64,000 nt of DNA from Minisyncoccota bacterium (GTDB lineage: Bacteria > Patescibacteriota > Minisyncoccia > Phycocordibacterales > UBA9973), in assembly GCA_041659785.1 (NCBI GenBank), contig JBAZXO010000002.1:55479-119478 (forward strand), given 5' to 3'. The first letter of the stretch is position 1; every line of letters starts with the position of its first letter. Below, piece by piece: positions 4,764 to 63,015 of this stretch. The notes under the pieces were generated by a model. It did not search any database and had not been told where the DNA came from. It saw nothing but the letters and a program-made list of their open reading frames with translations. The translations under genes and the position numbers were made by a program.

Positions 4764-4834
4764 TGCGGGATGGGAGAATCGAACTCCCAACCTCAGTTTG
4801 GAAAACTGACGTTTTACCATTAAACTAATCCCGC
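4764..4834 (-). tRNA. tRNA-Gly (anticodon TCC), no encoded CCA
   Basis: Folded by hand: acceptor GCGGGAT/ATCCCGC, anticodon stem TCAGT/ACTGA with loop TTTCCAA, T-loop GGGAGTTCGATTCTCCC. Confidence 0.85.
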
Positions 4835-4838
4835 AATG

Positions 4839-4909
4839 TCGGGCCGCTGGGAATTGAACCCAGTCTAAATGCTCCCAAAGCACTTGTACTACCGGTATAC
4901 TACGGCCCG
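4839..4909 (-). tRNA. tRNA-Pro (anticodon TGG), C1-G72 start, 3-bp D-stem, no encoded CCA
   Basis: Acceptor CGGGCCG/CGGCCCG, anticodon loop TTTGGGA, T-arm CTGGGTTCAATTCCCAG. It lies 4 nt from tRNA-Gly. Confidence 0.75.
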
Positions 4910-4965
4910 CCTTCGCTAAAGCTTCGGCGGGCAAGCCCGCTTCAACTTAAAGCTAACACAGCATA

Positions 4966-5394
4966 TCATAAAATAATATCACTTACCACTTTTATTTTTG
5001 CTTTTTTGTTTTTTATATCAATAAAGACTACCAATAAATCCACTTGCCATTCTTTTTCATCTGGGACTTTTTCAGACAAAAGATAGGTTTGAATTGTCCG
5101 TGACAGACGTTTAAGCTTCCAGGGATGCATGTTGTCTTCAGGTCTATGTTGGTATCGCTCATCAGAATCATTATAAGATTTCGGTATAAAAGTATTTAAT
5201 GTTTCACGCGAAACACTTTTTACTTCTACAAAGTATATTTTATTAGCTTTTTCGGCGACTATATCTATTTCACCCCATTTCTTGGTGTAATTTCGATCTA
5301 ATACTGAAAAACCATGTTTCACAAGGAACTTTACAGCTATATTTTCTCCAATTTCTCCTATTTTTTGTGTGTTTGATGTAAAAACCTTAGGCAT
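4966..5394 (-). CDS. yraN: YraN-family (UPF0102) endonuclease
   Basis: GEIGENIAVKFLVKHGFSVLDRNYTKKWGEIDIVA is the typical YraN N-terminus. Confidence 0.75.
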   Translation of the reverse strand: MPKVFTSNTQKIGEIGENIAVKFLVKHGFSVLDRNYTKKWGEIDIVAEKANKIYFVEVKSVSRETLNTFIPKSYNDSDERYQHRPEDNMHPWKLKRLSRTIQTYLLSEKVPDEKEWQVDLLVVFIDIKNKKAKIKVVSDIIL

Positions 5395-5620
5395 ATAATA
5401 AGTTTCACATGGAACATAGTCTAATTGTGTTTCACGTGAAACGTTTAGCTAAATTTTTGTGTCTTTTATAAAAATATCCTTATTTTATAAGGTTTTATTG
5501 ACAAAAATAGACTTAAAAGACAACTTTTTTTACTGTCCTTTATAAACAGTACCCACATAGTTATCCACATATTTCAATAAAATCCTTGTGTTGCAAAGCT
5601 TTACTAAAGGACAGATTTTG

Positions 5621-5691
5621 TGCGGCTAGGGAGAATCGAACTCCCGTCTCATCCTTGGCAAGGACGTGTTCTACCACTAAACCATAACCGC
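5621..5691 (-). tRNA. tRNA-Gly (anticodon GCC)
   Basis: Acceptor GCGGTTA/TAGCCGC, anticodon stem CGTCC/GGATG with loop TTGCCAA, T-loop GGGAGTTCGATTCTCCC. The 71-aa ORF 5561..5776 overlying it is spurious. Confidence 0.85.
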
Positions 5692-5852
5692 AATAGTATT
5701 TTATAATTTTTTTCGTTTTTAAATTAAAAAATACTATATGATTATAGTATTTTATTGAAACTAATGCAATTGCCATATTAGCTTATAAAATAAGCATTAT
5801 TTGCCAATATTCCAATAATAGTGTAAAATATTGATATTATTAAATTAATTAT

Positions 5853-5924
5853 GCACCCGTAGTGAAATGGATATCACAACAGTCTTCGGAACTGTCGTTG
5901 GGGGTTCGAATCCCTCCGGGTGCA
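5853..5924 (+). tRNA. tRNA-Arg (anticodon TCG)
   Basis: Acceptor GCACCCG/CGGGTGC, D-stem GTGA/TCAC, anticodon stem ACAGT/ACTGT with loop CTTCGGA, T-loop GGGGGTTCGAATCCCTC. Confidence 0.85.
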
Positions 5925-5931
5925 CAAAGTC

Positions 5932-7659
5932 GTGGAACAAAACACTAAAAATTTAATAGCAAAAATACCCAAAGAGGTTTCACATGTAACAGATACATTA
6001 GAAAAGTACGGCTTTGAAGTGTACCTTGTTGGTGGATGTGTCCGTGATCTTTTAATGGGCAAAGAGCCAAAAGACTGGGACATTACAACTAACGCTAAAC
6101 CAGAACAAATTATTCCTCTTTTTAAAAAAACTGTTTATGAAAATACTTTTGGAACGGTAGGTGTGGTTCTCCCCTTTAATAAGGGGGAGTGGCCAAAGGT
6201 CGAGGGGGTGGTTTCACATGTAACAGACCCCTCCTCAATCCTCCCCTTAGCAGGGGAGGAAAATATGATTATTGAGGTTACGCCATACAGAATTGAGGCA
6301 AAATATAGTGATTTTAGGCATCCTGACGAGGTAAAATTCAGTGATAAGCTAGAAGATGACCTTAAAAGGCGTGATTTTACAGTTAACGCCCTGGCCTTAA
6401 GTCCCTCCAATTCGGCGGGCAAGCCTAAAGGACAACTGGTGGATTTGTTTGATGGTATAAAGGACATTAAAGACAAGACGTTAAAAGCAGTAGGGAACCC
6501 AGATGACCGTTTTGCAGAAGATGCGCTTCGAATGTTGCGTGCTGTCCGTTTCTCTTGCCAATTAAATTTTTCTGTGTCGTATGAAACTACAGAAAGTATT
6601 TTAAAAAATTCAGAGTTAATAAAAAAAATATCTGAAGAAAGAATTCGTGATGAGTTTGTAAAAATAATTATGTCAGAAAATCCTGCGAGCGGAATTGTGA
6701 TGTTACAAAAATTTAATTTGTTAAAAAATATTATTCCTGAATTAGAAGAGGGTATTGGTTGTGAACAATTAGGTGAACATATTTATGATGTGTGGGATCA
6801 TTTACTTCATGCACTCTCACATGCCGCAGACAAGAATTGGCCTTTAGAAATAAGGCTCGCAGCACTGTTCCATGATATCGGAAAGCCGAGGGCAAGAAGG
6901 TTAGCCGTACCTGATGCTTTTGCTCGGGATATCCTGGCAGGCCAACGTCACCACTCACAAAAGTATACAGGTTCGGCTAACCAAGAAGATTTCTCTGAGG
7001 CTTTTTCGAATGGTGACGTTGCGAAGCAGGACATTCCTGAGAAAAAGAACTCAGAGAAATCTTCAAAGAAAAAATATACTTTTTACGGTCATGAAGTTAT
7101 CGGCGCAAGGATGGCGAAAAAAATAATGGAGAGATTAAAATTTCCTAAAAAAGAAATTGATCTTGTGGAAAAACTCGTACGCAACCATATGTTTTTCTCA
7201 GACACTGAATTGATTACACTTTCTGCTGTTCGAAGAATTGTTGTGAAAGTTGGTAAAGAAAATATTTGGCCACTTATGAATGTCCGTGAGTGTGATAGAG
7301 TGGGGATGAATAAAAAAGAAGCACCCTATCGGCTTCGAAAATACTTCGCGATGATAGAAGAAGCTCTTCGTGACCCTATTTCTGTAGGACAACTAAAGAT
7401 TAATGGAGAATATATGATAAAAGAGCTTGGGATTACTCCTGGACCCAGAATGGGATGGATTTTAAATGCTTTATTGGAAGAAGTTTTAGACGCGCCAGAG
7501 AAGAATACCGTAAGTCATTTATCTGGATTGGTAAAATCATTAAATATGCTTGGTGATGCTGAGCTTAAAGTCCTCGGTTTGCGAGGAAAAGAAAAGAAAG
7601 AAGAGCTTGAAGAAGAAGAAGTCGCGAAACTTCACGAAAAGCATGGAGTGAGAAAGTAA
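5932..7659 (+). CDS. cca: CCA-adding enzyme / poly(A) polymerase family nucleotidyltransferase with HD domain; likely GTG start at 5932, just after tRNA-Arg
   Basis: YLVGGCVRDLLMGKEPKDWDITT head motif and an HD-domain region (LFHDIGKP). The track start at 5920 overlaps the tRNA 3' end. Confidence 0.8.
   Translation: MEQNTKNLIAKIPKEVSHVTDTLEKYGFEVYLVGGCVRDLLMGKEPKDWDITTNAKPEQIIPLFKKTVYENTFGTVGVVLPFNKGEWPKVEGVVSHVTDPSSILPLAGEENMIIEVTPYRIEAKYSDFRHPDEVKFSDKLEDDLKRRDFTVNALALSPSNSAGKPKGQLVDLFDGIKDIKDKTLKAVGNPDDRFAEDALRMLRAVRFSCQLNFSVSYETTESILKNSELIKKISEERIRDEFVKIIMSENPASGIVMLQKFNLLKNIIPELEEGIGCEQLGEHIYDVWDHLLHALSHAADKNWPLEIRLAALFHDIGKPRARRLAVPDAFARDILAGQRHHSQKYTGSANQEDFSEAFSNGDVAKQDIPEKKNSEKSSKKKYTFYGHEVIGARMAKKIMERLKFPKKEIDLVEKLVRNHMFFSDTELITLSAVRRIVVKVGKENIWPLMNVRECDRVGMNKKEAPYRLRKYFAMIEEALRDPISVGQLKINGEYMIKELGITPGPRMGWILNALLEEVLDAPEKNTVSHLSGLVKSLNMLGDAELKVLGLRGKEKKEELEEEEVAKLHEKHGVRK
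6168..6263. repeat. GC-rich composite palindromic insertion inside cca, read in-frame; contains an 18-nt direct repeat of 5976..5993
   Basis: ctcccctttaataagggggag hairpin, then tggccaaaggtcgagggggtgg, then ggtttcacatgtaacaga (identical to 5976..5993), then cctcccc-ttagca-ggggagg hairpin. Related to the family-B elements at 30945 and 58931. Confidence 0.45.
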
Positions 7660-7751
7660 AAAACAAATCTAGCAAAATTTTATCAGGTCCTCGGTTCTCT
7701 GGGTCCCTGTCCCAGCCAGACCATGCTAAAATTTTCTAGATTTGTTTTTTT
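7658..7751. repeat. MITE-like palindromic element, family A (core caggtcctcgg...ccagcc; TIRs aaaaacaaatctagcaaaatttt / aaaattttctagatttgttttttt). Probably also the cca/TMEM175 terminator
   Basis: The inverted termini and GC core were read directly. Homologous copies lie at 29772 (inside comM) and 57507, with a fragment at 40395. Confidence 0.5.
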
Positions 7752-9275: not shown

Positions 9276-10232
9276 TTATCCTTTGTTGTGAAACTTTTTG
9301 TGTATATCACGCAAATGTTTGTCTGTGACGTGAGTATAGATTTGAGTAGTCGCGATATTGGAGTGCCCGAGCATAGCCTGGACGGAACGTATATCTGCAC
9401 CATTCGAGAGTAGGTCAGTAGCGAAAACATGACGAATGACGTGTGGGGTTACTTTTTTTGAGATGCCGGCTATTGTAGCGTATCTTTTTACAATTCTTTC
9501 CACTGAACGGCGAGTGAGGCCATCATCCTCTTGAGAATTTTTTTCTTTCTTTTTATCTAAATTTTTCTTTGACGATACTTCATCATTTATTTTTACAAAA
9601 AGAGCATCTGACATATTTTTCCTTATAGCCAAATAATTTTTTACTGCCTTTTTTGCTTCATCAGACAGGAAAACCACGCGTACCTTACCACCCTTGCCAC
9701 GTATAGAAAATTCATCTAAATGCAAATCAAGGTCATTTCGTAAAGAACAAAGTTCTGATACACGTAGGCCAGTAGAAAAAAGCATTTCTAAAATTGCTTT
9801 GTCTCTGTATTTCCTCTCTAAATTTTTTTCGTTATTGGGTGCATCTAGAAGTCTCTTGAGTTCTTCTTGGGAAATAACGTCAATTTGTCTTTCTCCAATT
9901 TTTGCTAGCTCTATGTGGTCAGAGGGGAGAGATGTAATATTTCTTCTTGTTAAAAATTTAAGAAAAGTTCGAAGAGCTATTAAATAGTAATTTTGAGTTT
10001 TCTTTTTTATCGTTTCCCCAGTGGCTCTGTTGTTGCCAGTGGTCTGGCGATTGAGCCAAATACGAAAATCTCGAACTTTTGTATCTGTGATATCTTTTGG
10101 ATCAGTGATTTTTGTTTGGTTAAAAAAGACAGTCAGATAATGATCATAGTTTTCGACTGTTCTTATAGCTCGCCCTTTCTCTATTTCGATATATTCCAAA
10201 AATTGAGTTTTAAGTTGTTGCATGGAAGCCAT
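9276..10232 (-). CDS. Tyrosine recombinase (XerC/XerD-like)
   Basis: C-terminal HVIRHVFATDLLSNGADIRSVQAMLGHSNIATTQIYTHV carries the R..H..R..Y catalytic motif. N-terminal SAM-like domain. Confidence 0.8.
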   Translation of the reverse strand: MASMQQLKTQFLEYIEIEKGRAIRTVENYDHYLTVFFNQTKITDPKDITDTKVRDFRIWLNRQTTGNNRATGETIKKKTQNYYLIALRTFLKFLTRRNITSLPSDHIELAKIGERQIDVISQEELKRLLDAPNNEKNLERKYRDKAILEMLFSTGLRVSELCSLRNDLDLHLDEFSIRGKGGKVRVVFLSDEAKKAVKNYLAIRKNMSDALFVKINDEVSSKKNLDKKKEKNSQEDDGLTRRSVERIVKRYATIAGISKKVTPHVIRHVFATDLLSNGADIRSVQAMLGHSNIATTQIYTHVTDKHLRDIHKKFHNKG

Positions 10233-29257: not shown

Positions 29258-30877
29258 ATGAGTTTTGCAAAAGTCTACTCTGCACAAGTTAATTTACTTA
29301 AGGGTTCTATCGTGACAATTGAAGTGGACCTCTCGCGAGGTCTTCATTCTTTTAGTTTGGTTGGTCTGCCTGATAAAGCGGTGGATGAGTCTAAAGACAG
29401 AGTAAGCGGAGCGATAAAGAATTCTGGTTTTAAGTCACCGAAAGCAAAAAATCAAAAGATAATCGTCTCACTTTCACCAGCTGATTTAAAAAAAGAAGGA
29501 CCATTTTTTGATCTTGGGATTGCACTATCTTATATGCTCGCCGCAGGAGATGTGAAGTTTGATTCAGAGAAAAAGATTTTCTTAGGAGAACTTGGGCTCG
29601 ATGGCACTCTGCGTAGAATTCGTGGAGCATTGCCTCTCGCCCAAGAAGCGAAGAGGCTTGGCTTCGAAGAAATATATTTACCAAAAGAGAATGCAGTCGA
29701 GGCGGCACTCGTGGAGGGCGTCACAATTTTCGGAGCAAATAGTTTAAAAGAAGTTGTTGAGCACCTCAGTTTCCGTGAGTCTAGCAAAATTTCTTCGGGT
29801 CCTCGGTCCTCCGGGGCCCCACACCCCGGCCAGACCACTCAGAAATTTTCTAGTCTCACGGAAACCGGGAAGCTTATTTTGTCTCAGCCACAAACTAAAA
29901 TAAATTATAAAAAAGAAGTTTCACGCACAGACTTTTCTGATATTCGTGGACAAGAAGGAGCAAAACGAGGACTGGAGATTGCAGCAGCTGGCGGGCACAA
30001 TATTGCTATGTACGGTCCGCCAGGCACAGGCAAGACGATGCTTGCACGAGCATTCTCACAACTTCTGCCAGATTTAAATATTGAAGAAGTGTTAGAGATT
30101 ACAGGTATCCATTCTGTGGCGGGGAGTACAATGGGGGAGCTCGTTTGTTTTGCTCCATTTCGAGCGCCACACCACACGTCGTCTTATGTCTCTATCATTG
30201 GTGGAGGAACATACCCAAAGCCAGGGGAAGTGACCCTCGCGCATCGCGGGGTTTTATTTTTAGACGAATTTCCAGAATTTGAAAAGAGAGTTATCGAATC
30301 TTTGCGTCAGCCCCTCGAAGACAACATCGTCTCGATCTCTCGCGCTAAAGGCACAGCCGTATTTCCTTCAAATTTTATTTTAGTAGCAGCGATGAACCCT
30401 TGCCCTTGCGGGAATGCGACTTCAAAACAAAAAGCCTGCATTTGCAAACCTTCAGACCTGGATAGATATAAAAGAAAACTTTCTGGTCCAATAATTGACC
30501 GTATTGATCTATGGGTTTCCGTAGGGAATGTGGATTATAAAAAGTTGGGAGGGGAGGGCAACGGAGAGAAGAGTGAGAAGATAAAAGAGAGAGTTACAAA
30601 AGCGCGAGAAATTCAAAAAGATAGATTTAAAAAATTTGGAAAGAGCATAATTACAAATAGCGAAATGAATGTGAAAGATTTAGGAGCGATGATAAACCTC
30701 TCTGGCAAGGTGCGAGACTTATTGGATGACAGCGCAGAGCGTTTATCACTGTCGGCTCGTGCGTATCATCGAGTTATTAAAATAGCTCAAACTATCGCAG
30801 ATCTGGAATCTTCTCCCAATATCGAAGAACACCATATTCTAGAAGCCATACAATATAGGCCTAAAGTTAATAATTAA
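29258..30877 (+). CDS. comM: YifB/ComM Mg-chelatase-like AAA+ ATPase
   Basis: N-terminal Lon-like domain. Walker A MYGPPGTGKTML. C-terminal ChlI-type domain. Confidence 0.9.
   Translation: MSFAKVYSAQVNLLKGSIVTIEVDLSRGLHSFSLVGLPDKAVDESKDRVSGAIKNSGFKSPKAKNQKIIVSLSPADLKKEGPFFDLGIALSYMLAAGDVKFDSEKKIFLGELGLDGTLRRIRGALPLAQEAKRLGFEEIYLPKENAVEAALVEGVTIFGANSLKEVVEHLSFRESSKISSGPRSSGAPHPGQTTQKFSSLTETGKLILSQPQTKINYKKEVSRTDFSDIRGQEGAKRGLEIAAAGGHNIAMYGPPGTGKTMLARAFSQLLPDLNIEEVLEITGIHSVAGSTMGELVCFAPFRAPHHTSSYVSIIGGGTYPKPGEVTLAHRGVLFLDEFPEFEKRVIESLRQPLEDNIVSISRAKGTAVFPSNFILVAAMNPCPCGNATSKQKACICKPSDLDRYKRKLSGPIIDRIDLWVSVGNVDYKKLGGEGNGEKSEKIKERVTKAREIQKDRFKKFGKSIITNSEMNVKDLGAMINLSGKVRDLLDDSAERLSLSARAYHRVIKIAQTIADLESSPNIEEHHILEAIQYRPKVNN
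29772..29862. repeat. Family-A palindromic element inserted in-frame inside comM (encodes ...FRESSKISSGPRSSGAPHPGQTTQKFSSLTETG...)
   Basis: TIRs tccgtgagtctagcaaaatttct and agaaattttctagtctcacgga. Core cgggtcctcggtcctccggggccccacaccccggccagacc aligns with the 7658 copy. Confidence 0.5.
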
Positions 30878-31234: not shown

Positions 31235-31801
31235 ATGAAAAATGTTTATCAAACAAAACTAGAATCTTTTTACGGCGACAACAAAAGGATGCCTACGTAT
31301 TCTGAGATGATGAAGCTCTTTGGTTTTAAATCAAAGAATGCCGTTTTTCGCGTGGTGGAGAAATTAATAGAAGCTGGACTCGTAGCAAAAGACCACTTGG
31401 GTAGACTTGTCCCAGCTGAAACTTTTGGAGAAGTACCAATGCTTGGTTTTGTAACTGCGGGGTTTCCAGCTACCGTAGAAGAAGAGTTAGCAGACACTAT
31501 AAAATTAGACGATCTTTTAATAAAAAATAAATCTTTAACATATATGCTCGAAGTCGATGGTGACTCTATGATCGATGCTCACATCGAGCGGGGAGACATG
31601 GTGCTCGTAGAGAAGGCAACTGTCGCGAAAGATGGGCAGATAGTCATAGCTGAAGTAGATGGAGAGTTTACGATGAAATATTTTCGTAAAGATGGAGCAA
31701 AGGTCTGGCTCGAACCAGCTAATAAAAAATATAAACCAATCTATCCAGAACACTCTTTAAATATAAATGCAGTTTTAAAAGCAGTAATAAGAAAATATTA
31801 A
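31235..31801 (+). CDS. lexA: LexA repressor
   Basis: wHTH N-terminus. Ala-Gly cleavage site (VTAGFPA). S24 peptidase motifs VDGDSM...GDMVLV...GEFTMKYF. Confidence 0.85.
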   Translation: MKNVYQTKLESFYGDNKRMPTYSEMMKLFGFKSKNAVFRVVEKLIEAGLVAKDHLGRLVPAETFGEVPMLGFVTAGFPATVEEELADTIKLDDLLIKNKSLTYMLEVDGDSMIDAHIERGDMVLVEKATVAKDGQIVIAEVDGEFTMKYFRKDGAKVWLEPANKKYKPIYPEHSLNINAVLKAVIRKY

Positions 31802-36981: not shown

Positions 36982-37013
36982 AAAGCCCCGCCACTTGCAA
37001 GTGGCGGGGCTTT
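36982..37013. terminator. Hairpin aaagccccgccacttgcaagtggcggggcttt
   Basis: Perfect 11-bp GC stem, read directly. Confidence 0.6.
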
Positions 37014-43254: not shown

Positions 43255-43416
43255 ATGACTCGCGCAAAGCAGTACTCTGAACTGGAGAGAGGAGAGAAAA
43301 GAAGAAGAATTCTTTCCAGGTACGGCGCAAAGACACAAAGTCAAGGTTGTGACACGCCGTGCGATACACCATGTGACACGCCATGTGACACGCCGTGCGA
43401 TACACCGTGTGGGTAA
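43255..43416 (+). CDS. RiPP precursor peptide, 53 aa: MTRAKQYSELERGEKRRRILSRYGAKTQSQG-(CDTP)5-CG, with six Cys in the last 22 residues
   Basis: GGAGG RBS 5 nt before the ATG. The 12-nt tandem repeats vary only at synonymous positions (tgt/tgc, gac/gat, acg/aca, ccg/cca). A terminator hairpin follows immediately. The longer 74-aa track ORF from 43192 has no RBS. Confidence 0.6.
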   Translation: MTRAKQYSELERGEKRRRILSRYGAKTQSQGCDTPCDTPCDTPCDTPCDTPCG

Positions 43417-56644: not shown

Positions 56645-56664
56645 ATCTACGCTATAGCGTAGAT
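56645..56664. repeat. Perfect 20-bp palindrome atctacgctatagcgtagat (copy 1), 24 nt upstream of the Cas2-like gene
   Basis: Read directly. Identical to 57066..57085. Confidence 0.7.
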
Positions 56665-56688
56665 TTAGAAAAGAGGTATAATAGGAAT

Positions 56689-57060
56689 ATGGAAAATAGA
56701 AGGCGTCGTTATAAAGGCATGTCAGTAAATCTTTTGGGTTTGCCGAGTTTTGATAGTTTTGAAAAAGCCAAAGTAAACACACGCAAAGTACCTAAACGAT
56801 TTTATCTTAAATCTTTTGTTTCTGATTTTCACAAAAATGCGCCCAAAAACTTGCTTCTTATTTATGATATACCCGAAGGGAGAAAAAAAGAAAGAGATTG
56901 GTTTCGTAGGCAACTTAAGAATTTTGATTTTGTGATGATCCAAAGAAGTGTCTGGGTTGGACCAGCACCTTTACCGGCAGACTTTCTTTCTTATTTGAAA
57001 AGAATAGGTTTACGAAAAGAATTCAAAACATTTAAATTAGCTAAATCATATAATAGTTAA
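56689..57060 (+). CDS. Cas2-like (Cas2/VapD-superfamily) small protein with a ~55-aa basic N-terminal extension. Orphan: no cas genes or CRISPR array in the window
   Basis: LLLIYDIPEGRKKERDWFRRQLKNFDFVMIQRSVWVG fits the Cas2 pattern h-h-YD-h..R.+..L...G.R.Q.SVF. Confidence 0.4.
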   Translation: MENRRRRYKGMSVNLLGLPSFDSFEKAKVNTRKVPKRFYLKSFVSDFHKNAPKNLLLIYDIPEGRKKERDWFRRQLKNFDFVMIQRSVWVGPAPLPADFLSYLKRIGLRKEFKTFKLAKSYNS

Positions 57061-57065
57061 TGTTA

Positions 57066-57085
57066 ATCTACGCTATAGCGTAGAT
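57066..57085. repeat. Perfect 20-bp palindrome atctacgctatagcgtagat (copy 2), 5 nt after the Cas2-like stop
   Basis: Read directly. Confidence 0.7.
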
Positions 57086-59930: not shown

Positions 59931-61433
59931 ATGCGGGATAGAGTTTTTTATACAATATGTTTTGGATTTTTGTTTGGGGTGCTGTTGCGCTCTTTTTTAT
60001 TTGTAAATTTATATTTTGTTATTTTATTTAGTGTAATTGCATTGGCTTTATTATTATTCTTTACACTTATCTCGAAAAATAATTGGGGAATATTAGCTTC
60101 TCTTTTTATTTTGATTTTTTGTTTTGGAATTTTTAGATTTAATATGGTGGACGTTACTAACCCTACTGTTTTTGAGTCCTGTGTTGGGCAAAAGATTACT
60201 TTAAGAGGGGAAATTGTAGATGAACCAAGTATTAAAGAAAATAATCAGCAGCTAATTGTACTTGCCACCACTCGAAGTTGGACATTGGGTTCTTTTGATG
60301 TCCAACCTCAGGAAACAGAAATTTTATTGTCAGTTAATTTAGATGAAAATTACAAATACGGAGATGAAATAAATTTCACAGGTGTTTTAAAAAAGCCGGA
60401 GAATTTTATTACAGATACGGGTAAGGTTTTTGATTATGTAAATTATCTCCGCAAAGACGGCATTTTGTATGTGATGAGTTATCCTAAAGTTGAGATCATT
60501 TCACGAGGAAATGGCAACAGCATTCAAAATGCCTTATTTTCCGCTAAGGAAAAGTTTTTAGAAAAAATGAATTTGGCTATAACCGGACCCGAGAGTCTGC
60601 TCATGGGTGGGCTCATTTTAGGAGAGAAGTCTTCTTTCAGCCAAGCTTTAAGGGCTAGCTTCGTGAATACTGGAACGATACATATAGTAGCGCTTTCTGG
60701 ATACAATGTGACGATTGTCGCAGAATGGATAATGAAACTATTTGCTCGAATATCTTTTGTTTCCTTAAATTTTAGTATTGGAATGGGTATTTTGACTATT
60801 ATTTTATTTATTTTAATGACGGGTGGAAGTTCTACAGCTATTCGGGCGGGGATAATGGCGACTCTCGCGCTTATTGCCCGCGCGACCGGCAGAAATTATG
60901 ATGTCGCGCGGGCTCTTGTTCTGGCCGGAGTATCTATGATAATCCTCAATCCATTTTTACTTGTGTATGATGTTTCTTTTCAGCTTTCTTTTATTGCGAC
61001 AGTGGCGGTGATATTCCTTGCCCCTAGAATTGAGAAATATTTTATGTGGGTACCAGAGCGTTTTCAATTACGAGACATTGTGTCTGTCACGTCTGCAGCA
61101 TATATTTTTGTTTTTCCATTTATTCTTTATAAAATGGGGAATTTCTCACTTGTCGCTTTACCCGCGAACGTTTTAATTCTTCCCTTTATTCCATTTACGA
61201 TGATGCTTGGTTTTATTACCGGTTTTGCAGGACTTATTTATTATGTATTTGCTATACCTTTTGGTTATGTTTCTTATTTATTTTTACACTATGAGCTCAG
61301 TGTGATTAATTTCTTCTCACATCTTCCTTTCGCAGCTTTTTCTTTTCCAGATTTTCCACTTTTCCTCACAATAGCAATATACATATATTTTATTTACAAA
61401 CTTTTTTGGAGGAGTATAAAAGAAAATATATGA
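59931..61433 (+). CDS. comEC: ComEC/Rec2 competence channel, membrane part (DUF4131 plus competence domain). Lacks the beta-lactamase-like domain
   Basis: Multi-TM protein. LLMGGLILGEKSSFSQALRASFVNTGTIHIVALSGYNV competence-domain motif. Confidence 0.8.
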   Translation: MRDRVFYTICFGFLFGVLLRSFLFVNLYFVILFSVIALALLLFFTLISKNNWGILASLFILIFCFGIFRFNMVDVTNPTVFESCVGQKITLRGEIVDEPSIKENNQQLIVLATTRSWTLGSFDVQPQETEILLSVNLDENYKYGDEINFTGVLKKPENFITDTGKVFDYVNYLRKDGILYVMSYPKVEIISRGNGNSIQNALFSAKEKFLEKMNLAITGPESLLMGGLILGEKSSFSQALRASFVNTGTIHIVALSGYNVTIVAEWIMKLFARISFVSLNFSIGMGILTIILFILMTGGSSTAIRAGIMATLALIARATGRNYDVARALVLAGVSMIILNPFLLVYDVSFQLSFIATVAVIFLAPRIEKYFMWVPERFQLRDIVSVTSAAYIFVFPFILYKMGNFSLVALPANVLILPFIPFTMMLGFITGFAGLIYYVFAIPFGYVSYLFLHYELSVINFFSHLPFAAFSFPDFPLFLTIAIYIYFIYKLFWRSIKENI

Positions 61434-62130: not shown

Positions 62131-63015
62131 TTGATATACTATAAGTATATCATGTTAGAAAAACAGATAAAATATAGTCTGTTATTGTTCACTTTTTTGC
62201 TTTTAGTGGCAAATTTTTTTCTTTTTTACACAGATTGGAAGAATTCTCATAAACAGCTTACTTTTGCAATGCTTGATGTCGGCCAAGGCGACGGCTTTTT
62301 TATAGAATCTCCGACAGGTATACAGGTTATGTTCGATGCTGGGCCACCCCGTAAAGTTTTAGGCCCACTTACGCATGTGATGTCCCCATTTGATAAAAGT
62401 ATTGATGCAGTTGTTATTACAAATCCTGACGCAGATCATATTGGTGGGTTATTAGATATTTTGAAAAACTATAAAGTGGGTCGTGTTCTAGAATCTGGCA
62501 CTTTGACTGATTCGAAAACTTATCAAAGTTTGAGGGATGAAATGAAGAGACAAAATATTCCTGATATCTTAGCTAAAAGGGGAATGAAGTTAGACATGGG
62601 TGGTGGAGTGGTGATAGATATTTTATTTCCTGATCGTGACGTATCTTCTTGGGCGACGAATGATGGATCTGTCGTGGCGCGTCTGAGTTATGGCAAGACG
62701 TCAATAATGTTAACTGGTGATGCACCGATAAAAACTGAACAAATAATATTGAAAGAAAATTCGATAGCACAGTTAGCCAGTACTATTTTAAAAGTTGGGC
62801 ACCATGGTTCACGTACTTCTACTTCTAATAATTTCTTAAAAGCTGTTTTTCCTAGTTATGCATTAATCTCTGATGGTAAAGATAATAAATACGGCCATCC
62901 CCACAAAGAAACTCTCAATGCTCTTGCCCAGTTGGGTGTAAAAATTTTAAGAACTGACCTATTGGGTACGATATTTATTAAATGTGATACAATATTGCCA
63001 TGCGAGATAAACTAA
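62131..63015 (+). CDS. ComEC-type metallo-beta-lactamase domain protein, encoded separately from the channel part
   Basis: MLDVGQGDGFFIE...ITNPDADHIGG...TGDAP...VGHHGS, the ComEC C-terminal domain pattern. N-terminal TM anchor. Confidence 0.75.
   Translation: MIYYKYIMLEKQIKYSLLLFTFLLLVANFFLFYTDWKNSHKQLTFAMLDVGQGDGFFIESPTGIQVMFDAGPPRKVLGPLTHVMSPFDKSIDAVVITNPDADHIGGLLDILKNYKVGRVLESGTLTDSKTYQSLRDEMKRQNIPDILAKRGMKLDMGGGVVIDILFPDRDVSSWATNDGSVVARLSYGKTSIMLTGDAPIKTEQIILKENSIAQLASTILKVGHHGSRTSTSNNFLKAVFPSYALISDGKDNKYGHPHKETLNALAQLGVKILRTDLLGTIFIKCDTILPCEIN

Follow-up and report, generated by a model that had tools for sequence, protein, structure and literature searches.

A gene for a small Cas2-like protein, bracketed by two copies of a perfect 20-bp palindrome, is found in a stretch of 64,000 nucleotides from a Minisyncoccota bacterium (GenBank assembly GCA_041659785.1, contig JBAZXO010000002.1), which is referred to here as the window. 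Comparison with related loci indicates that the palindrome keeps a fixed position with respect to the promoter of the gene and that its bases change together with particular residues of the protein, and the interpretation favoured here, as probable rather than assured, is that the product is a dimeric, self-regulating and site-specific DNA-binding protein built on the Cas2 fold.

The gene and its flanking palindromes

The two copies of the palindrome ATCTACGCTATAGCGTAGAT are identical and perfect (Table 1), the first ending 24 nt before the ATG and the second beginning 5 nt after the stop codon of a 123-aa open reading frame (ORF), and exact matching across the 64 kb agrees in every respect with the layout described in a first-pass annotation of this DNA. 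A third copy is absent from the window even when three mismatches and a free centre are allowed, and in shuffled sequences the number of matches expected by chance is 0.00 for the exact pattern and 0.09 when the centre is N4. Upstream of the ORF lie tpiA and pgk, and downstream a convergent HIT gene followed by recJ, rnhA and comEC; the spacers to pgk and HIT, of 68 nt and 52 nt, are filled by the palindromes. The gene had been described as an orphan and so it proves, since the 59 window ORFs with a length of 90 aa or more include no cas gene and no CRISPR-like spaced repeat family was found in the window, and in the neighbourhoods of relatives no cas1, other cas genes or CRISPR array were seen. 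Nor are there any paa genes amongst the same 59 ORFs. A search of the window for a winged-helix paralogue that might be the real binder of the palindrome found none, the single weak tblastn match falling in glyA. No antitoxin gene adjoins the ORF, its flanks being pgk and HIT, and this, together with conservation of the gene at 70-80% identity in the manner of a housekeeping gene, tells against the proposal that it encodes something toxin-like.

A TATAAT hexamer follows the upstream palindrome and ends so close to the ATG as to suggest that the mRNA is leaderless or nearly so; a consensus scan at this promoter predicted no -35/-10 pair. Approximately 90 distinct gene loci were collected for comparison of the layout, and in nearly all of them 22-29 nt separate the end of the palindrome from the ATG, and a TATAAT-like hexamer, which begins 12-13 nt past the upstream palindrome, stops about 7 nt short of the ATG. 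When 101 gene-flanking sites were taken together, -10-like hexamers peaked at offsets 12-13, where there were 55 matches compared with a background of about 3 per offset, and the spacer around the hexamer is not conserved among orthologues. In most orthologues the second palindrome is found overlapping the stop codon or no more than about 30 nt past it, and in arm and centre it usually agrees with its upstream partner at the same gene. In the loci measured the centres of the two sites are 406-501 bp apart (421 bp in the window), distances which, judged by eye, reveal no preferred helical phasing of two operators.

The palindrome appears to be under purifying selection as DNA, because silent sites in the gene are near saturation while the site is unchanged: in 33 orthologues, which had been preselected for an exact upstream palindrome, the third-codon positions of identical residues are only 57% identical. 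In a wider set, extending to proteins with at least 64% identity, most relatives still keep the exact palindrome. The gene itself occurs in two neighbourhoods, SecDF-LemA-M48-(207-aa ORF)-gene-gatCA and, as in the window, tpiA-pgk-gene-(HIT)-recJ, each of which is common to several diverged genomes.

One explanation of the palindromes is that they are generic terminators, as had been suggested, or a chance repeat that merely flanks the gene. Both copies do lie just downstream of genes (pgk in the one case, and the ORF itself and, on the other strand, HIT in the other), and the hairpin is a stable one, the 20-mer folding as a single strand at -9.8 kcal/mol (z = -4.8). However, a scan for intrinsic terminators between 56400 and 57300 returned 0 terminator-like sites, and there is no T-run or U-tract (the tails that follow the two palindromes are TTAGAAAAG and ATGAATATT), and the upstream copy is located upstream of the gene's own -10 box. 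Moreover, 0 copies are expected by chance, and the primary sequence is conserved across genera and covaries with the protein. This explanation is refuted by the fixed spacing to the -10 box and by the covariation described below, and retains scarcely any credibility.

The protein and its covariation with the palindrome

The best Pfam match of the 123-aa protein is PaaX_M (PF20803), the Cas2-like middle domain of PaaX, with 50 bits against a cut-off of 24 over residues 56-117, and CRISPR_Cas2 (PF09827) is also above its cut-off (28.3 bits, cut-off 23.8). Amongst the NCBIfam models, TIGR01573 (cas2) at 24.3 bits falls just below its cut-off of 24.5, and TIGR02277, the PaaX equivalog, scores 13.4 bits against a cut-off of 264.6. 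The Pfam search yielded no helix-turn-helix (HTH) match and no HUH/Tyr transposase or recombinase domain, and there is no HxH motif in the sequence. An AlphaFold model made from 44 close homologues has a mean pLDDT of 60.6, with values of 72-79 in the C-terminal domain, and no claims are based on its N-terminal part; the order of its secondary structure elements (E53-59, H66-78, E82-85, E88-92, H97-106, E112-120) is beta-alpha-beta-beta-alpha-beta. Foldseek comparison with the Protein Data Bank (PDB) retrieved VapD and many Cas2 chains at probabilities of 0.94-1.0 and E of about 0.04, with VapD 3ui3 as the top match (probability 0.97) and VapD HP0315 and SSO1404 among the best. A PDB sequence search with the single protein gave no match, and a profile of the family finds type II-A Cas2 chains with E of about 0.004 and aligns D60 to the Cas2 Asp. 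The first-pass assignment of the protein to the Cas2/VapD type is therefore backed by Pfam profiles, by fold matches and by the family profile. Within the Cas2-like domain Y59-D60 and Q85-x-S87-V-W89 are invariant.

Close homologues number 663, all of them about 120 aa long and 68-80% identical, from Paceibacterota/Nomurabacteria metagenome genomes. A profile search of 1.8 billion representatives added 2004 more distant relatives, most of them about 160 aa long, in which the match begins near residue 70. These long forms possess an N-terminal winged helix, made up of helix 1, a YKGxxVNxxGLP segment, a recognition helix and a wing, and this region gives weak matches to several winged-helix families. 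Alignment of the short form with its relatives of about 160 aa indicates that helix 1 has gone, together with some 40 residues of recognition helix and wing. The short form descends from proteins that combined a winged helix with a Cas2-like domain, having lost the recognition helix and wing, and the N-terminal motif YKGMSVNLLGLP is a remnant of the ancestral winged-helix domain. Long-form relatives are likewise bracketed by palindromes of their own.

Table 1. Positions in the window of the Cas2-like gene, of its flanking sites and of the parts of the protein discussed in the text
Feature	Position	Strand	Remarks
Upstream operator (putative)	56645..56664	.	arms ATCTACGC-TATA-GCGTAGAT; covers about -44 to -25, the place expected of a -35 hexamer
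-10 box TATAAT	56677..56682	+	read from sequence; begins 12 nt past the palindrome and stops 6 nt short of the ATG
Cas2-like ORF	56689..57060	+	123 aa; coordinates include the stop codon
Conserved N-terminal motif, residues 8-19	56710..56745	+	YKGMSVNLLGLP; near-invariant in short and long forms
Codons V34-P35-K36-R37	56788..56799	+	putative readers of the outer half-site
Cas2-like ferredoxin-fold domain, residues 53-120	56845..57048	+	AlphaFold, Foldseek, family profile
Codons D60-I61-P62-E63	56866..56877	+	D60, counterpart of the Cas2 metal-binding Asp; E63, putative reader of the palindrome centre
Downstream operator (putative)	57066..57085	.	identical copy, between the convergent 3' ends of the Cas2-like gene and the HIT gene

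In family members that are more distant (50-60% identity) the same position is occupied by different palindromes, without exception two-fold symmetric ones. Across the family the arms fall into the classes ATCTACGC, ATTTACGC, ATATACGC, ATATCAGC, AATTGAGC and ATTTCAAC and the centres are TATA or CATG, both centre types being found in each of the three main arm classes. Paralogues within one genome each have a palindrome class of their own (L037, L106, L074).

In a set of 70 short-form genes the centre of the palindrome goes with residue 63, which is Glu or Asp where the centre is TATA and His, Ser or another residue where it is CATG (34:0 with TATA, 2:34 with CATG; Fisher p = 6e-18). The base at position 3 goes with residues 37 and 34: Arg37 accompanies C (40:4 with C, 1:25 without; p = 9e-14) and Arg34 shows the inverse relationship (2:42 and 23:3; p ~4e-13), so that palindrome classes with A or T at position 3 are associated with Arg at residue 34 and not 37. 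Parsimony changes were counted on neighbour-joining trees from which the test columns had been masked, a joint count close to the larger single count meaning that both changes fall on the same branches and one close to the sum meaning that they are independent. The counts for the two characters and for both jointly were 9, 7 and 9 for residue 63 and the centre, which represents about 7-9 co-occurring changes, 10, 12 and 14 for R37 and position 3, and 10, 8 and 12 for R34 and position 3. The cross-pairings that served as controls, centre with R37 (26:8 / 15:21, p = 0.0039; changes 9, 12 and 19) and position 3 with residue 63 (26:18 / 10:16, p = 0.14; changes 10, 7 and 16), appear to change independently on the tree, their joint counts being 19 of a summed 21 and 16 of a summed 17 respectively. 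The column with the highest mutual information is residue 63 for the centre (0.91 of 1.09 bits) and R37 for position 3.

Three further proteins were picked by residue 63 before their DNA was fetched. P0060 (H63) proved to have CATG on both sides, P0088 (H63) CATG and P0109 (E63) TATA; all have R37 and ATCT arms, and both rules are obeyed in 3/3. Two long forms agree, in that P0123 combines E with TATA and P0128 combines H with CATG/CATA. All these correlations argue that the palindrome and the Cas2-like protein co-evolve, and they lend weight, together with the fixed position of the palindrome relative to the -10 box and the ATG, to the earlier idea that the palindromes are operator sites.

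The palindrome elsewhere in relatives' genomes

One genome per species was scanned for ATCTACGC-N4-GCGTAGAT, giving at least 117 loci. Among the matches listed, most of those from Patescibacteria-type assemblies had a YATR centre and were not next to a Cas2-like gene, and several assemblies had 2-4 of them on different contigs, with exact copies numbering at least 1-4 per assembly. By location, the listed matches comprise 27 sites flanking a Cas2-like gene, 26 inside ORFs of at least 100 aa, 30 between co-directional genes (12 of these with a spacer no longer than 40 nt), 12 between convergent genes and 3 between divergent genes. In the flanking sequence of the genes the other arm classes had 0 extra copies in about 84 kb, and the ATCTACGC class had about 6 in about 100 kb, a comparison based on little sequence. 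Several metagenome contigs (L124, L206, L207, L126, L191) start or stop inside or beside a gene-flanking palindrome, which suggests that assemblies break there and that site counts from draft genomes are underestimates.

The dispersed copies appear to belong to the same protein-site system as the gene-flanking ones, because the two share a centre type within a genome: dispersed copies agreed with the centre type of their own genome in 15 of 18 pairs (permutation p = 0.004) and matched that of the gene-flanking copies in 11 of 12 cases. The possibility raised at the outset, of a genome-wide motif unrelated to the gene, is thus correct to the extent that there are extra copies elsewhere in relatives, but not as regards their unrelatedness. 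A plain transcription-factor regulon was also considered for the dispersed sites and was rejected as the main explanation, as there are few -10 boxes and the locations are mostly not promoters.

Intragenic copies are always in a single stop-free frame, encoding xLR(Y/H)(S/G)VD. The host genes confirmed by Pfam encode a ComF-type phosphoribosyltransferase (6 genomes, at the same position), RsmI (4 genomes), DHFR, RecR, the C-terminus of Fmt, and Dus; a NifS-type desulfurase, MnmA and the CCA enzyme were assigned by eye from sequence, the window orthologue of the last having Pfam support. Because orthologues that lack the site have homologous peptides of equal or near-equal length, the evidence leans towards sites being gained or lost in place. 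In DHFR the site-less FNAPGCTV aligns with YLRHGVDV, and the C-terminus of the CCA enzyme reads KLHEKHGVRK in the window and KLHLRHGVD in L055. The corresponding DNA of the L055 enzyme is an exact copy of the palindrome, and the CCA-adding enzyme gene of the window (5920-7656) matches it, in its 3'-terminal part at 7620-7650, at about half of 21 bases, so that this part is a decayed or never-completed site. There are apparent additions of 6-7 codons in a few intragenic sites, namely the RecR zinc finger and the C-terminal tail of Fmt, and the RsmI loop is likewise insertion-like. Insertion as the origin of the intragenic sites therefore receives a mixed answer, with peptides of the same length in two cases and short differences in length in others, which leans to change in place.

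These observations bear directly on the view that the palindromes are the ends or copies of a selfish element and that the protein is a domesticated enzyme which nicks and spreads them, whether in the manner of REP sequences and their RAYT transposases or as the mobile cassette of about 440 bp that the first-pass annotation had envisaged. The hallmark of RAYTs is a single-copy gene with the same short palindrome on either side and further copies of it scattered through the genome. The present gene resembles them in this. Like REPs, its palindromes have CTAC/GTAG in their arms, some intragenic copies (in RecR, RsmI and Fmt) have the look of inserts about 7 codons long, several contigs end at the palindrome and the gene is known from two different neighbourhoods. 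Set against this, the protein has no HUH/Tyr transposase or recombinase domain, exact copies are few among the matches listed, there are no target-site duplications, each of the two neighbourhoods is common to several diverged genomes, the site-less CCA enzyme and DHFR have homologous peptides of the same length, which indicates gain or decay in place, and the intragenic sites of ComF and RsmI are at the same position in all of the genomes concerned. The gene is, moreover, present as a single copy in the window. A mobile element of either sort is accordingly considered very improbable, and the cassette in particular is not supported, the two neighbourhoods being stable.

The commonest neighbours of the dispersed palindromes are genes for a Cys-rich family of about 570-590 aa that begins M..K..CxNCKxxFxIEPxDF and has no Pfam match; they often occur as tandem paralogues, with the palindrome typically 7-14 nt before the ATG (L027, L038, L059, L065, L069, L097, L101, L102, L109). 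In L052 the two parts of ComEC are adjacent and a copy of the palindrome lies exactly between them; in the window, too, its membrane 'Competence' part and its metallo-beta-lactamase part are separate (59931-61430 and 62131-63012), with a superoxide dismutase gene on the opposite strand between the two.

The window has a number of other features. A 40-nt direct repeat, 85% identical (TCTAGCAAAATTTTATCAGGTCCTCGGTTCTCTGGGTCCC), occurs at 7668-7707, just past the CCA enzyme gene, and at 29780-29819. Directly after the trigger-factor gene, at 36982-37013, a G+C-rich sequence forms a perfect palindrome whose arms, of 17 + 17 nt, overlap (AAAGCCCCGCCACTTGC / GCAAGTGGCGGGGCTTT); it looks like a strong bidirectional terminator and is unrelated to the 20-mer. 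There is a 12-nt tandem repeat (TGTGACACGCCG and variants) of about 5 units at 43348-43411. Four tRNA genes, three on the minus strand and one on the plus strand, lie at 4764-5924 beside the ZIP transporter, UPF0102 and CCA enzyme genes, and four tRNAs are all that Rfam finds in the window. A LexA-like Peptidase_S24 protein (31235-31798) and a XerC/D-type tyrosine recombinase (9276-10229) are also encoded, neither of them near the palindromes.

Mode of action, precedents and significance

An important consideration is whether the protein would meet the palindrome as duplex DNA or as a stem-loop. Imperfect gene-flanking sites, with one or two mismatches in the arms, contain 34 non-pairing mismatches compared with 4 G.T wobbles, and many of them, found repeatedly, are hybrids that join one half-site class to another (xCAGC + xACGC), as in ATCTCAGC-CATG-GCGTAGAT, which would place two adjacent mismatches in an 8-bp stem. 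These hybrid half-sites, the symmetry of a centre of which both flanking bases are predicted by one residue, and the location of the upstream copy outside the gene's own transcript make the data fit two subunits that read half-sites on duplex DNA, and not a stem-loop. The competing proposal is that the protein is a ribonuclease of the VapD/Cas2 type, or a hairpin binder, which acts on RNA or single-stranded DNA stem-loops in its own 3' end, in cistron spacers and in coding regions, and so controls the processing or stability of mRNA. The fold family includes RNases, with HP0315 and SSO1404 amongst the nearest structures, Asp60 is invariant, the 20-mer folds stably, and most of the dispersed copies among the matches listed are in transcribed DNA, either coding or in tiny intra-operon spacers. 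However, the upstream copy, although upstream of the -10 box, is as conserved as the downstream one, and in three intragenic sites with an asymmetric centre, few as these cases are, the sense strand reads CATA, which would be a C.A mismatch if paired. In view of these points and of the half-site hybrids a hairpin ligand is thought unlikely.

Also to be considered is that the dimer binds as proposed and is in addition a site-specific endonuclease that cuts the centre of the palindrome by means of the Asp60 pair and a metal ion. Asp60 is aligned with the catalytic Asp of Cas2 and the specificity residue 63 is just three residues away. On the other hand, the genome would have to tolerate or protect 2-10 sites of its own, some of them within essential genes, the fixed position of the operator at the gene's own promoter indicates regulation, and Asp60 could be structural or a non-catalytic metal binder; in Cas1-Cas2 the catalytic activity of Cas2 is dispensable. 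Cleavage of this kind is judged distinctly unlikely, and Asp60 may be regarded as a candidate for nuclease activity.

Several points weigh against a regulator on the Cas2 fold that reads duplex DNA. The evidence is comparative throughout. The covariation tests were devised after the same data set had been viewed, the independent check consisting of three proteins. The AlphaFold model is weak, with the N-terminal 52 residues below a pLDDT of about 55, and, as the short form has neither recognition helix nor wing, the proposed DNA-reading surface has no solved precedent. The invariance of Asp60 in short and long forms is what would be expected of an enzyme. Among the matches listed, most dispersed sites are away from promoters and a -10 box at the operator offset accompanies only about 17% of dispersed sites (about 14/82, with a weak excess at offsets 9 and 13). 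Finally, additional complementary arms of variable sequence are present at 21% of the intergenic dispersed sites and in 0.6% of controls, an excess that a hairpin ligand would lead one to expect. Such arms could reflect use as a cruciform or hairpin, or growth of the palindrome through mutational bias, palindromes being known to grow by template switching, and they are not explained by binding to duplex DNA. Approximately one fifth of the intergenic palindromes are extended in this way, by 4-12 variable complementary bases on each side, to give hairpins of up to 42 nt (L010, L026, L076, L081, L085, L092, L099 and others).

According to the mechanism proposed for a site-specific regulator, a homodimer would recognise the 20-bp palindrome on duplex DNA by its Cas2-type domains and the short basic N-terminal segments, each subunit reading one half-site. 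In the two-fold symmetric homodimers of Cas2 proteins a distance of 7-11 Å across the axis separates the two Asp residues of a conserved pair (PMC5438308). The central TATA would be faced by the D60-I-P-E63 loop that follows strand beta1, the counterpart of which in Cas2 dimers is at the two-fold axis, and it is geometrically reasonable to place residue 63 over the dyad of the palindrome because it is three residues past the Asp that faces its partner across the Cas2 axis. Arg37 would contact the G:C pair at position 3/18. The upstream copy would occupy the -35 region of the gene's own promoter, which has a conserved TATAAT, no -35 hexamer and an ATG about 7 nt further on, and its occupancy would set the transcription of the gene, most likely by repression; activation, by supplying the missing -35 contact, is a possible alternative. 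A second dimer, on the copy at the stop codon, may take part in looping, form a roadblock or insulate the gene from the convergent HIT gene, and in relatives the same pair of protein and site would be put to use at a handful of other places on the chromosome.

The system has points in common with several known ones. PaaX, the repressor of phenylacetate catabolism (TIGR02277; PF07848 + PF20803 + PF08223), shares with the window protein its central PF20803 domain, and the nearest larger relatives of the latter have an N-terminal winged helix in front of that domain; in both cases the gene is linked to its own palindromic DNA target. Unlike PaaX, the window protein, which ends at residue 123, has no recognition helix, wing or PaaX C-terminal domain, there are no paa genes near its gene, TIGR02277 scores far under its cut-off, and the putative specificity residues are in the Cas2-like domain and the linker that precedes it rather than in an HTH. 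The resemblance to Cas2 lies in the ferredoxin-type fold, the motifs hhhhYDI and QxSVW, the invariant Asp at the end of beta1, a PF09827 score above cut-off and the match of the family profile to type II-A Cas2 structures, whereas the 52-residue N-terminal extension, the TIGR01573 score just below cut-off, the link to a specific palindrome and the lack, in the window as in relatives' loci, of cas1, other cas genes and an array are all differences; Cas2 itself binds DNA without sequence specificity. VapD, the toxin of VapXD pairs, is the top fold match, but the window gene has no adjacent antitoxin and is conserved, single-copy and housekeeping-like. RAYTs with their REP/REPIN sequences offer a parallel in the bracketed single-copy gene, the palindrome found elsewhere and paralogues that each have a class of their own, but the present protein is no HUH/Tyr transposase, the copies among the matches listed number a few and not hundreds, and some copies of the window-type palindrome are in frame within genes, where they appear to arise and decay in place. 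ParB-parS and MatP-matS are similar in having a perfect palindrome that is lineage-wide, present, to judge from the matches listed, in a handful of copies per genome in both coding and non-coding DNA and also found beside the gene of its binder, but their folds are unrelated and the site at the window gene is clearly a promoter element. By homology the window protein is a truncated PaaX-type protein with a Cas2-like domain; it would work like a small autoregulated repressor, and it appears to fall outside Cas2 proper, PaaX proper, the VapD toxin-antitoxin pairs and the RAYTs.

A literature search of incomplete coverage produced no description of this family, of its palindrome or of a sequence-specific DNA reader with the Cas2 fold, and within the same limits nothing relevant was found on Cas2 together with PaaX, on Cas2-like winged-helix regulators, on palindromic motifs of Patescibacteria or on the motif string itself.

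Cas2 is universal in CRISPR systems and is seen there as a scaffold that ignores sequence or as a nuclease without specificity, and proteins of the PaaX type are assumed to read DNA by way of the winged helix. The present family has dispensed with the winged helix and has kept, and even tightened, its link to a 20-bp palindrome, and the residues that track the DNA are in and just before the Cas2-like domain, beside the conserved Asp of the dimer axis. Should binding be borne out, this would be a new mode of DNA recognition for a very common fold and an unreported use of the Cas2 fold, with a simple code in which E63 goes with TATA, H63 with CATG and R37 with C at position 3. A more far-reaching version, put forward speculatively and with little confidence, is that the Cas2 fold needs no HTH in order to read, and perhaps to cut, a specific palindrome; that a Paceibacteria-wide network of 20-bp sites, placed at both ends of the gene, between other genes and, in frame, within housekeeping genes, serves a function at the level of the chromosome (roadblock termination, insulation, organisation) or is a domesticated spreading system like that of REP/RAYT; and that it offers a plausible model for an ancestral Cas2 acting on palindromic repeats. 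In practical terms, the labels 'Cas2' or 'PaaX' that many of these genes have been given by NCBI and JGI are misleading, and confirmed binding would draw attention to a conserved set of chromosomal sites, some of which are embedded in essential genes. To our knowledge almost nothing has been established about regulation in the CPR/Patescibacteria, and the protein and its palindrome would, if the interpretation is correct, be among the first defined regulator-operator pairs from these organisms.

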